A stretch of DNA of 64,000 bases, from NCBI GenBank assembly GCA_976551045.1, contig CDPCPM010000064.1, positions 3,410,001 to 3,474,000 of the forward strand, written 5' to 3'. Made by a program: the position numbers and the translations under genes. The first letter of the stretch is position 1. Every line of letters begins with the position of its first letter. Positions 2,594-61,457 of the stretch are shown here, in pieces. Below the pieces are notes generated by a model. It searched no databases. It was not told the origin of the DNA and worked only from the letters and a program-made list of their open reading frames with translations. Origin of the DNA: Glaucostegus cemiculus. Lineage: Eukaryota.

Positions 2594-2663
2594 ATGGGAG
2601 CCCGGATACTTGGAAAAGTCCTGGCCATTTACTATCCAGTTCTGACAGCTGTTGATGTTGCTG
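2594..2663 (+). pseudogene. Orphan exon 1 of a GPR139/142-like GPCR
   Basis: Reads MGARILGKVLAIYYPVLTAVDVA+G|gtgcgt. It matches the exons at 27463 (IFYPIIAAVGIP+G|gtaagt) and 38971 (AFYTLLVAIGIP+A|gtaagt) and has the same phase-1 donor. The conserved G-x-P is changed to D-V-A, and no matching exon 2 was found nearby. Confidence 0.7.
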
Positions 2664-3040
2664 GTGCGTAGTTACACACAGATACTCACACTGTTCATCC
2701 CTTTTACCTCTGCAGTTGCTGCTGATGGGCTGTTACGTTGCTGTAGAATTCTGTGGACGAGATATGCTCAGTCCGACTGTTGCTTTCAATTTAACCCAGA
2801 GCGTTCATTTAAACTGTGATTTTATGCAGAGTTACACTGTGGTATTTTGACTGCTGAAGGTGTTACAGTGTGATGTGTAAACCCGCCGCCAATGTTAAGT
2901 CAGCAGTGACGGTGTGAGTTTACAGTGTACATTCTGTGTGTGAGGGGCAGAGAGGAGGAACACGCTGATAGTTCCAGTCTGTGAAATACACCGTGAAATA
3001 ACCCCGGATGGGTGTTCCTTTGTCTCCATGCTGTTACAGT

Positions 3041-3868
3041 TGTTACGAAGTACCTTACTATAGGCAACTATCCCTTTAAGATGGGACATTGTGTGTGTGT
3101 GCCACGTATTACGTCAAAAGAAGATAAGACTAACGTGATGAGATCATTACAAGAAAGAAAAAGATAAGACAGAGAGAGAGAGACAGACGGAGAGAGAGAA
3201 GAAGGAGAGATGGAAGCCTGTTTTGTTTCTGTCGATGGATGAAGGACAGTAACTGTGTTAGTTACTAAAATCAGTGGATGGATTTCTGGAGTGGTTCAGT
3301 GGAGTTCACTTTGTCGGTAACCTGTAGAAGGACACAGGTGTTTGCGTGGACAACCACATTTTGGATGCTCTTCAGAGTGGCAGATACTATGGAACAAAGT
3401 GATGGAATTCACTTTGCTGCTAACCTGTAGAAGAACACAGGTATTTGCATGGACAGTCACGATCAAGGAGTTTTCAGGGTGAGAAAGTCACTACCGAGTA
3501 AACCCTGAAGTGTCGTTTGAGTTTTGAGTGGAACATTCGGATTTCGTGATTCTTCTCTAATCTCTCTCTATATCTATGTTTTGTCTTCGGTGGACAGTGC
3601 TTGTGAAGAAGCCTTTATTCGTGTGTCATTTTACGGCTTATTGAACTGAACTTTAAGAACTATTTCCTGGACTTGGAGTTTAGGAACTTGCCGCACACGC
3701 ACGACGAGTAGTATTGGGGTTATAGTTTAAGATTCTAACATTTTATTGTGTACTAATATACTAACTTTTTATTCTTATTTTACGTATTATCGGATGTAGT
3801 TATTAAGAAAGTAGTTTTAACACTGAAGTATGAATTGGTGTGCTTCTTTTGTTGCTGGTTTCGTAACA
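3041..3868 (+). mobile_element. Solo LTR of a Gmr1/Gypsy-related family
   Basis: Termini TGTTACGAA...TTCGTAACA (9-bp inverted repeat), with a 4-bp TSD CAGT at 3037-3040 and 3869-3872. Internal motif ggagttcactttgtc..taacctgtaga is also present in the LTRs at 14641-15357 and 20193-20997. Confidence 0.9.
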
Positions 3869-4059
3869 CAGTACTGAGGCAAACTAACCTGCTGTCAATG
3901 GCTTCCTTTCACTTATACGGACAGTAGATCAGCCGTTAATGCTCCCGTCCGTGTGTGAGGCCGGCGTGTCGCTCGACTGCCAGGGACATGCTCTATTTTC
4001 ACTTCCATCCACTTTATGTATTCACATGTGGCGTGGAATATTTCTACGTCCAGGAATAA

Positions 4060-4260
4060 GTCCCCGCTGATCGACAACATAACCAACTCTGAACTGCTGG
4101 CAAAGTTCAGCAGGTCAGGCGGCACCTGTGGAATTGGAAACAGTGTAAGGAACCAGGTCAAAGTTGCTTGATACAGACTGAGAAAGGGAGAAAGTGAGTT
4201 ATTGTAGGTGGCAGAGGAAGTGGGGAAGGTAATGGGTGGAACACAGGGGATGTCTAGAAC
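4060..4260 (-). mobile_element. Penelope-like terminal repeat fragment
   Basis: Reverse strand reads ...ggtgccgcctgacctgctgaactttgccagcag, similar to the repeat ends at 44690-44790 and 51620-51690. Confidence 0.45.
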
Positions 4261-59335: not shown

Positions 59336-59953
59336 AAAGCTGATGAAAGCCGCCCACTAGCCCACTGGGCATTGGCCCAATTAATCTTTTCACATTTCCC
59401 TTAAAAGGCAGAACATTTGACCGAGAATACGGATCAGGCGTTTGAAAATGGAGGAAGATATGGAAACATGAAAAGATAGCAAAGCGTGAATTAAAGGAGA
59501 AAGGGGAAAACGCCTCCGTTCTATGCAGAGCTCAATGCAACAAAGTTGAGAGATTTTAATAACATTACCCTTCAATGCCGTAAAAACAGTTGAATGTTGT
59601 AGGGCAGGAAAATTGACATCATCAGGCAGTCTCATGAGCTAAATTTATGAATAAAATTTTTAGTGGCTTTAATTAAGCGAGCACCTTGCAATATGTTGGG
59701 AATGTGGATGATAAGCTGTACTGTGAGCAGTCGTAAGACCGGAGTATGACATCCAGCACATTGGCGGGGCTTCCCTTGACAAAGTGAATCCAATTCGGTG
59801 GCAGCATTTGTGTTGCGTTGAAAACAGAACAGCTTAACTGGAAAGGTCAAGGTGACGGGGGTTTACAATTCCAAGGTCAGATTGGAGAAAGTTGGTTGAG
59901 ACTGTCCGCCCAGCGAGAAGTTTCTCGAAAAGCACTTGTGAAAATTGGAAGCT

Positions 59954-60035
59954 TGGCAGTGGTGGGATTCGAACCCACGTCCCCGAAGAGACTGGAGCCT
60001 AAATCCAGCGCCTTAGACCGCTCGGCCACACTACC
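59954..60035 (-). tRNA. tRNA-Leu(TAG), intact
   Basis: GGTAGTGTGGCCGAGCGGTCTAAGGCGCTGGATTTAGGCTCCAGTCTCTTCGGGGACGTGGGTTCGAATCCCACCACTGCCA. Canonical A and B boxes; TTTT terminator about 10 nt downstream. Confidence 0.95.
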
Positions 60036-60836
60036 GCCTATCAGATTAACATATGATCTCCAATTCATTGCCTTCGAGTCTGCACTTACCTCTTAATGCA
60101 TGGAAGCTCGCTTCGAGAAACAAAATGAGCACCTTGAGAAGGGATAGTGAGAGAGACAGTGAGTGAGAGGGAAGAGAGAGAATCAGAAAAATGTGTCGAC
60201 ACTCTGAGGTTGTCCGTGTGACTTTTGATTTAAGGACTGGGTTTTGTTCCTCCCTAAATTCGGTTGTGCCTTAAACACATTTCTGATACAAGCAATCACG
60301 ATGCTTTTTAGTTTGTCTGCCACAGAGTAAATACAGGAGGCTGGTTGTGTTTTGTGGCTTCATCCATTTATGGAATGAGTTGAATTAACAGGGCCGGCGA
60401 ACCGATGGTGAACAGTAAGTAGGAGCGTCAGTTCTTTGTGAAGCGTGGTGTCAGGGAAGGGAGGACTGGCAGCTCAGAGTCTTTGTTGATTGGATTCCAG
60501 TGAAGACAGGAACGTGGAAAGAAAAGTATTGTCTCAACGGGATAAAGAAACAATCTTGGCCATAAGAAGGAACAAAATGTTAAACCAACAAGAGGTGAGG
60601 CTACGCGGGTTGAAGGGAAGAACAAAATAGCGCTAGTCACTGTAGTACTGGCAGCGAACAAAAGAAAACCAATATCCAGAAGCAGCTGGAAATCCAATTT
60701 TTCCTGACAGGTTTCTGAACTATCAAAAGAGGAACAGGTAATAGGCGTAAGGTCAACTGCCCGAATATTATCCAGTTTCATCAGAATGAGTCCCGTAACA
60801 GAGGAATGTTCGAATGAGCTGAGGACAAAGAAGTGA

Positions 60837-61457
60837 ACTGAAGAAAGCGCCCAGCGTATTGGAACTGCATGTCCGCTGTTCTTTTTCAAAAGCATCCGCT
60901 GGCACTTTGCATTTGATCCTGTCTATACCGAACAGAACGTATCGTGGGGCTGCCATACAAAGTTGGGTTTCTACACTGACTTCTCACGGGTTGCATCCAG
61001 TCTGATTCACTACTGTTTGACTCTACTGCTTCCAATATTCCTAATAACGCTGCTCAATAGTTTGACGGTAGGGCTCATTTTAGCGGCCAGTAGAGTCAAC
61101 AAGAGTCTGAGAGGCAGCAGAAGTGATGCGAACGAGGTTAATGCCGATTTGGAAAACAGATGGAAATCCATCATCTTCTTCTTTTCAATTTCAGGCAATT
61201 TCGTACTGCTCTGGCAGATGTATTTTATATTTTCCCTGTTCGTCCAAATTAGAGAGCAATATTTTCCAACCGGTTTACATGACCCGATGTTCATTGCAGA
61301 CGAAGCCAGAGACATGCTTCTGCTTTTGAGCTGCTGCGCAGACAGTTGTATTCATGCAGTGATTCAGACCAAATTCAGAAGGGAGCTGGCAAATGGGATG
61401 AAATATCCGCTGAGAATATTATTGAAATATTTTAATTTTACATTCTTCTTGAAATAA
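60837..61457 (+). pseudogene. 5'-truncated GPR139/142-like GPCR remnant D (TM4 to C-terminus)
   Basis: Open frame TEESAQRIGTACPLFFFKSIRWHFAF..NVSWGC..LLNSLTVGLILAASRV..ENRWKSIIFFF..SCCADSCIHAVIQTKFRRELANGM. Closely paralogous to gene B. An in-frame TGA at 60834 and unrelated sequence lie upstream. Confidence 0.85.

Follow-up and report, generated by a model that had tools for sequence, protein, structure and literature searches.

A huge, old and apparently undescribed family of GPR139-related receptor genes in Glaucostegus cemiculus

Current surveys of vertebrate chemoreception count six receptor families, and the repertoire of cartilaginous fishes is the smallest of the vertebrate groups. 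These fishes average 43.8 known olfactory receptor (OR) genes despite many sensory neurons, and the record OR repertoire is that of the echidna (2,399) (PMC10869828). Shark olfaction is V2R-dominated and microvillous, and the small repertoire has been explained as sensitivity traded for discrimination (PMC10116579). Unstudied orphan receptors related to GPR139 and GPR142 have been described in coelacanth, gar and fishes (PMC6504862), and GPR139 has been linked to MIP and FMRFamide receptors (PMC12208981). The word 'shark' is absent from the former paper, as is GPR139 from the main text on the 31-tissue catshark set (PMC11979771). Here we describe a stretch of 64,000 nucleotides of Glaucostegus cemiculus (contig CDPCPM010000064.1 of assembly GCA_976551045.1, positions 3,410,001 to 3,474,000; 'the window') which carries members of a thousands-strong G protein-coupled receptor (GPCR) family lying outside those surveys and concealed by automatic annotation as 'probable GPR139'. 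The family is a huge, old, constrained and pocket-diversified GPCR repertoire and is apparently undescribed, no account of the expansion having been found in the literature searched, to which subscription journals were outside the scope. Its sequences suggest a likely repertoire of sensors for external water-borne chemicals.

Four elements, all on the + strand, were identified in the pieces of the window covered (2594..61457), each in the position and state that the initial annotation had given. Gene A is an orphan exon 1 (2594..2663) encoding the N-terminus and the first half of transmembrane helix (TM) 1, with its ATG at 2594 and a phase-1 donor after 2663; exon 2 is deleted in this copy. 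A tblastn search with 51 family peptides found no exon 2 between A and B. Among 12 A-type comparison loci, taken from other contigs or from beyond the segmental block family seen here, seven (L183, L193-L198; L and C numbers are our handles for loci and contigs) have a full exon 2 located 5.6-8.3 kb 3', and the homology of A's intron to these loci ends near 12,465 in the window; A is therefore a true orphan first exon. The run of 145 N bases between A and B is too small to hold exon 2 unless it marks an assembly gap. Gene B consists of exon 1 (27427..27526, alternative ATG at 27463, phase-1 donor) and a pseudogenic exon 2 (31466..32365), broken by one inserted nucleotide near 31566, the loss of 12 nt in TM5 and an early TGA stop at 32294. 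Gene C is intact: exon 1 (38971..39079; 36 codons plus one base, phase-1 donor) joins exon 2 (40366..41300) to encode 347 amino acids with one stop. Gene D (60807..61457) is the 3' remnant of a B-type gene, running from intracellular loop (ICL) 2/TM4 to the C-terminus without exon 1 and TM1-TM3. The short N-terminus and phase-1 intron ascribed to all first exons are thus seen in A, B and C, exon 1 of D being missing.

Gene C encodes a class A GPCR (7tm_1 match of 63.5 bits against a cut-off of 30.5, with TFDRF as the DRY-like motif). Its structural model, built for exon 2 only, shows seven TM helices and helix 8 (pLDDT 88.5), and a fold search with this model returned only generic class A matches, GPR139 ranking 36th. 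B and C were said to share intracellular motifs and to differ in all three extracellular loops (ECLs). These motifs are present, and the two are 60-75% identical in four inner segments (TM2/ICL1, ICL2-TM4, TM6 and TM7) versus 9-24% on the outer side (ECL1 5/21, ECL2 2/23, outer TM6-ECL3-outer TM7 5/31); identity is also low in ICL3 (2/10). The four members are clustered, as proposed, but are not young copies of one another, since they span three subfamilies (A; B and D; C). Likewise, the common strand holds in the window, but genome-wide the strands are mixed (61 + and 39 - on contig C1).

Copies in the 2.85-Gb assembly were counted as exact pattern matches, each pattern being accompanied by a control. 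A looser TM3 motif gave 7,481 matches (control 2), a TM6 motif 5,523 (control 1) and a strict TM3 motif 4,097 (control 0). Looser motifs were used because the strict TM3 motif, present in 20 of 60 TM7 copies, leaves entire subfamilies uncounted, and a strict TM7 motif matched only 428 times because it fits few subfamilies. Over the first 4.84 Mb of contig C1, 54 of 79 TM6 matches had a TM3 partner, from which the union of the two motifs comes to about 9,200. Exon 2 was open in 50 of the first 100 strict-TM3 matches listed (35 under a stricter intactness rule), and 34 of those 50 had an exon 1 no more than 6.4 kb away, one subfamily having longer introns. A second sample, 60 places on 11 contigs from the first 100 listed of the 428 TM7 matches, had an intact exon 2 in 26 (22 of 53 without B copies). 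The pooled proportion (76/160; 40-56%) extrapolates to an estimated 3,500 or so intact main exons, with the samples coming from narrower motifs and an intact exon 2 not being equal to a whole gene. Redundancy among the copies is real: 77 intact peptides form 66 clusters at 99% and 61 at 95%, and 127 genome matches from one search had 93 distinct scores. We infer one to three thousand distinct receptors. The median pairwise identity among sampled members was 52%. The density on contig C1 (about 26 copies per Mb) would, on extrapolation, have the clusters span a few hundred Mb, more than a tenth of the assembly. Doubling of the whole assembly by haplotypes was considered and rejected, as none of GPR139, GPR142, two other orphans, the OR or the class C cluster is present more than once; duplicates may be retained within repeat blocks. 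The same genome yielded one strong OR match (G000:C309:1545706-1546533) and 50 class C matches, about 28 of them in one cluster. A single OR match is fewer than the 6-13 reported for cartilaginous fishes (PMC10869828), which limits of the search may explain.

Births in the family are segmental duplications in both orientations, and deaths are point lesions and deletions. The A-B-C block (about 38 kb) is repeated with similar spacing at no fewer than seven places on contigs C64, C72 and C331, with copies of gene C in these blocks 94-96% identical. Seven close B copies on the contig comprise four that are intact, two broken in other ways and one (L127) with B's frameshift and deletion. Gene runs on contig C1 reappear with offsets of 0.7-2.6 Mb, and copy pairs there are 99.3-99.9% identical over 8 kb. 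With copies in the thousands, segmental duplication and about half of the members broken, the birth-and-death repertoire proposed from the four genes of the window holds for the genome. Such turnover would also be expected if most copies were passengers, that is, if a few functional orphans lay in unstable, repeat-rich blocks and family size were non-adaptive. The recurrence of the blocks and the share of broken copies fit this, as does the duplication of genes already broken (L015/L023/L044 at 99.3%, L127 with the lesions of B, and the recurring A-type orphan exons). Against it, the ratio of nonsynonymous to synonymous substitution rates (dN/dS) in the inner TM regions is 0.20-0.34 in every subfamily analysed, indicating purifying selection; many subfamilies are common to sharks and rays, the promoter layout is kept and candidate selected sites lie in the pocket. 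We therefore regard passengers as an improbable account of the family, while some of the extreme number of copies in this assembly is likely due to passenger amplification.

Descent was examined by database searches and by a tree of 42 rows, built without a mixture model, rooted at the midpoint and containing no other class A families (no chemokine receptors). Gene C had 1,904 matches at E<=1e-10 in the protein database; the best 120 of these all come from sharks and rays and are nearly all labelled probable GPR139, the nearest named relatives being from Pristis and Narcine. No chimaera members were present among the named matches listed in the searches. True GPR139 and GPR142 are single genes in this genome (contigs C73 and C301), are 26-34% identical to family members and are both adjoined by class C genes; in human, GPRC5B/C adjoin GPR139/GPR142. 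In the tree the family forms its own elasmobranch clade (support 96/91), sister to an amphibian/sturgeon orphan (100/98) and next to a coelacanth/teleost-type orphan (95/87), while GPR139/142 stand apart and group with unnamed invertebrate receptors. The phylogeny thus indicates that the family is separate from GPR139/GPR142 and descended from a single ancestral orphan. The GPR139/142-like label given to the window does not hold as orthology, there being no 1:1 relationship with a GPR139 that is a separate single gene on a separate branch. Common descent and the shared TM1 intron nevertheless place the family, on sequence grounds, in the broad group of GPR139-related orphans.

Two further GPR139-related singletons were found, L115 (G000:C233), the orthologue of the coelacanth/teleost gene (61%), and L116 (G000:C46), which has no close relative among the rows compared. 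The amphibian/sturgeon orphan (P0233, P0279-P0298) carries the database label GPR139, yet is sister to the shark-ray family. A search with the salamander protein gave 25 matches, 21 of them amphibian or sturgeon (20 and one cluster), with no species appearing twice. This gene and the coelacanth-type orphan (P0233/P0298; P0247) resemble the family in their short N-terminus, the FYP..GxP end of exon 1 and the RRRS/RKS motif before TM6; they differ in being low-copy, with one match per species listed, and the coelacanth type has a single orthologue here. We know of no ligand or tissue for these bony-vertebrate orphans, and the amphibian/sturgeon gene offers a way to approach the family's ancestral tissue and ligand. 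They are possibly the GPR210A/B groups (PMC6504862). Two subfamilies have features of their own: L109-L114 (G000:C108, C590) form a dense group with DRT replacing DRF/DRY and short ECL1 and ECL2, and a branch of gene C's subfamily (L007, L008, L032, L036, L038, L046, L064, L079, L210) has a longer N-terminus in which, counted from the first ATG, about 45-70 residues precede TM1.

Selection was analysed in 48 sequences from contig C1 and the window (295 codons, three near-duplicates dropped), for which overall dN/dS was 0.44. The ratio rises from 0.25 in the inner TM regions and 0.33 in the ICLs to 0.48 in outer non-pocket TM, 0.62 in the ECLs and 0.72 at the presumed pocket positions. A site mixture with one synonymous rate favoured a class above 1 (twice the log-likelihood difference, 2dL, 108); with varying synonymous rates 2dL was 8.6, 19.3, 10.6 and 18.8 in four sets, each greater than all null simulations. 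Of the 24 candidate selected sites (flagged in any set), 20 lie in the outer half (Fisher p 4e-5), with eight in the pocket (2.61, 3.29, 3.33, 3.36, 6.51, 7.32, 7.35, 7.39), eight in outer loops and none in inner loops. The excess of variability that had been suspected on the extracellular side is thus observed, concentrated at extracellular and pocket sites; the site-wise analysis proposed with it places candidate sites in the outer half and pocket, but the signal is modest once synonymous rates may vary and is absent from the pocket of gene C's own subfamily.

Activation of GPR139 by Trp/Phe needs F3x33, H5x43, W6x48 and N7x38 (PMC5430874). With the residue register set by helix motifs, the 48 members have F3.33 in 4, H5.42 in 13, W6.48 in all 48 and N7.39 in 5, and two of the three lost positions are among the flagged selected sites. 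C3.25 occurs in 47 of 48 members and P6.50 is absent from the family. The suggestion that these are amino-acid receptors therefore lacks support, as the Trp/Phe pocket of GPR139 is not kept beyond W6.48 and the family is not nested in GPR139/142. Receptors for an internal or reproductive peptide or amino acid, acting in brain, gut or gametes as GPR139 does for Trp/Phe, are in our view very improbable. What points that way is that GPR139 is the best solved-structure sequence match, if a weak one (E 8.5e-7), that the phase-1 intron position in TM1 is common to both, that H5.42 is retained and the pocket conserved in the subfamily of gene C, and that invertebrate relatives of GPR139 are peptide receptors (PMC12208981). 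However, GPR139 and GPR142 are present beside the family as single genes, the residue counts above speak for a different pocket, and a fixed internal ligand needs no thousands of variable pockets. In all, the family is like GPR139/GPR142 in its best PDB sequence match, database label, TM1 intron, W6.48 and the lack of a canonical NPxxY proline, and differs from them in its separate branch, in having C3.25 and in lacking both the F3.33/H5.42/N7.39 set and P6.50.

A TATA-like box was identified 57-118 bases before the ATG in all short-exon subfamilies examined, and this promoter layout is kept across promoters that are themselves unalignable. Gene B has a putative perfect O/E (EBF)-type palindrome (27320..27329, + strand) some 25 bases upstream of its TATA-like box, and gene C a putative O/E-like element with one mismatch (38857..38866, + strand) 25 bases upstream of its TATA box. 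O/E-like and CRE-like words had been noticed before the tests were fixed, and fresh loci were fetched afterwards. Exon 1 was found in 11 of 20 fresh stretches, and eight of these were kept for the TATA-anchored test, three resembling others. The CRE/ATF-like motif passed on the fresh loci (3/11 versus 3.3%, p 0.005) and is not tissue-specific. In a post hoc TATA-anchored comparison, an O/E-like word with two mismatches or fewer stood near -21 in four of eight fresh and five of seven earlier promoters, against 6.8%. De novo 6-mer enrichment in the promoters gave nothing significant after correction. A GTTTGTT-like word was also seen by eye 60-75 bases upstream of the TATA box in L207, L215, L217, L212, the A-type loci and the largest C1 subfamily. 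In the mouse, OR promoters show enrichment for O/E and TATA (PMC3247239), and the O/E-like element in the present family may be treated as a lead only.

These promoters bear also on an immune or mucosal repertoire, in which leukocyte or epithelial GPCRs would detect microbial or damage peptides as formyl peptide receptors or MRGPRs do. We consider this unlikely, although it has several points in its favour: the same conserved signalling face, diversified pocket and fast turnover would be expected, very recent large duplications fit a host-pathogen race, the O/E-like site could bind the B-cell factor EBF1, and the motif that passed the promoter test was the CRE/ATF-like one. On the other hand, consensus words for PU.1, RUNX, NF-kB and C/EBP show no clear cluster-level excess, matches to chemokine receptors are generic class A ones and, in the tree, which included no chemokine receptors, the family sits with orphans of the GPR139 group. 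We also know of no immune GPCR family with thousands of members, which counts against it. Formyl peptide receptors and MRGPRs are, like the present family, lineage-specific class A expansions with variable pockets, but they are not close to it in sequence and are absent from the named matches. Those families hold tens of genes, not thousands, and the FPR-rs genes were co-opted in the rodent vomeronasal organ. Were the members expressed in leukocytes, the oldest jawed lineage would possess a previously unknown repertoire for innate recognition.

A repertoire of external chemical sensors is the reading that we hold to be, on balance, probable. Its members would sit in sensory cells of the nose, taste buds or skin; the constrained cytoplasmic face would provide common G-protein coupling, and the varied pocket would allow each member to bind different ligands. 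The short unglycosylated N-terminus, a C3.25-C45.50 disulfide and the FMRFamide/MIP/GPR139 descent would favour small peptides or small polar ligands over proteins. Several results weigh against this reading. The selection signal falls from a 2dL of 108 to 8.6-19.3 with only 4-6 simulations per set; only one region, the pocket of a 9-gene subfamily (2.1), has a dN/dS clearly above 1, and that subfamily shows recombination (PHI p 0.003); pocket sites do not differ significantly from other outer-TM sites (p 0.11), and the pocket of gene C's own subfamily is conserved (0.26). The pre-set O/E test failed on the fresh loci (2/11 versus 9.9%, p 0.30), the TATA-anchored comparison was made post hoc, and EBF acts in B cells as well. 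The 99.3-99.9% identical 8-kb copies imply that very recent duplication or redundancy of the assembly makes up some of the count. Families of immune receptors leave the same signature in their evolution. In catshark olfaction, V2R probes already detect robust expression, and TRPC2/Go microvillous cells make up nearly all of the olfactory neurons (PMC10116579).

The family resembles the OR, TAAR, V1R, V2R, T1R and T2R systems in lying in clusters that turn over by birth and death, and in members with a short N-terminus, an inner face that is conserved, a pocket that varies and a TATA box with a putative O/E-like site. It differs in having no homology to them beyond class A, a coding intron in TM1 and another ancestor. 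Gene C has no match to 7tm_4 or any other chemoreceptor Pfam entry and its coding region has an intron, unlike ORs; its N-terminus of about 20 residues and its match to 7tm_1 only, with no 7tm_3, set it apart from V2R and T1R. The estimated number of intact copies rivals or exceeds the record OR repertoire (PMC10869828). A seventh vertebrate chemoreceptor family, arisen from one GPR139-related orphan, forming with its roughly 3,500 intact members the largest known receptor repertoire of a vertebrate and explaining why animals whose olfactory organs are huge appear to have but a few dozen smell receptors, is a proposal that we advance tentatively and with some doubt. If it is true that the family is in sensory cells, the picture of sharks and rays as animals with few smell receptors would be overturned. 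Nematode Srw receptors offer a further likeness, as look-alikes among sequence clusters include Srw-bearing ones and the invertebrate outgroups match Srw, but gene C matches 7tm_1 only and the expansion is independent. We infer that Srw and the present family may represent parallel recruitment from the same FMRFamide/MIP peptide-receptor group.

Directly to the right of the window lies another broken member in the opposite orientation, L200 (G000:C64:3478357-3479312, - strand). Five tRNA genes were identified between C and D: Val-AAC (46540-46612 and 49926-49998) and Ser-GCT (53338-53419) on the + strand, and Val-TAC (55178-55251) and Leu-TAG (59954-60035) on the - strand. They are local to the window and no trait of the clusters (two doubtful calls in 140 loci). 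The two Val-AAC genes lie within a local 2-kb duplication (45276-47350 and 48670-50744, 88%). A decayed Ty3/gypsy-type long terminal repeat retrotransposon is located on the - strand at 14642-20713; its direct repeats (14642-15155 and 20194-20713) are 75% identical, and it holds broken reverse transcriptase, RNase H and integrase C-terminal pieces. Decayed reverse-transcriptase remnants of long interspersed nuclear elements are present on the same strand at about 7600-9400, 12500-14300 and 21000-22300, one of them where the intron homology of A stops.

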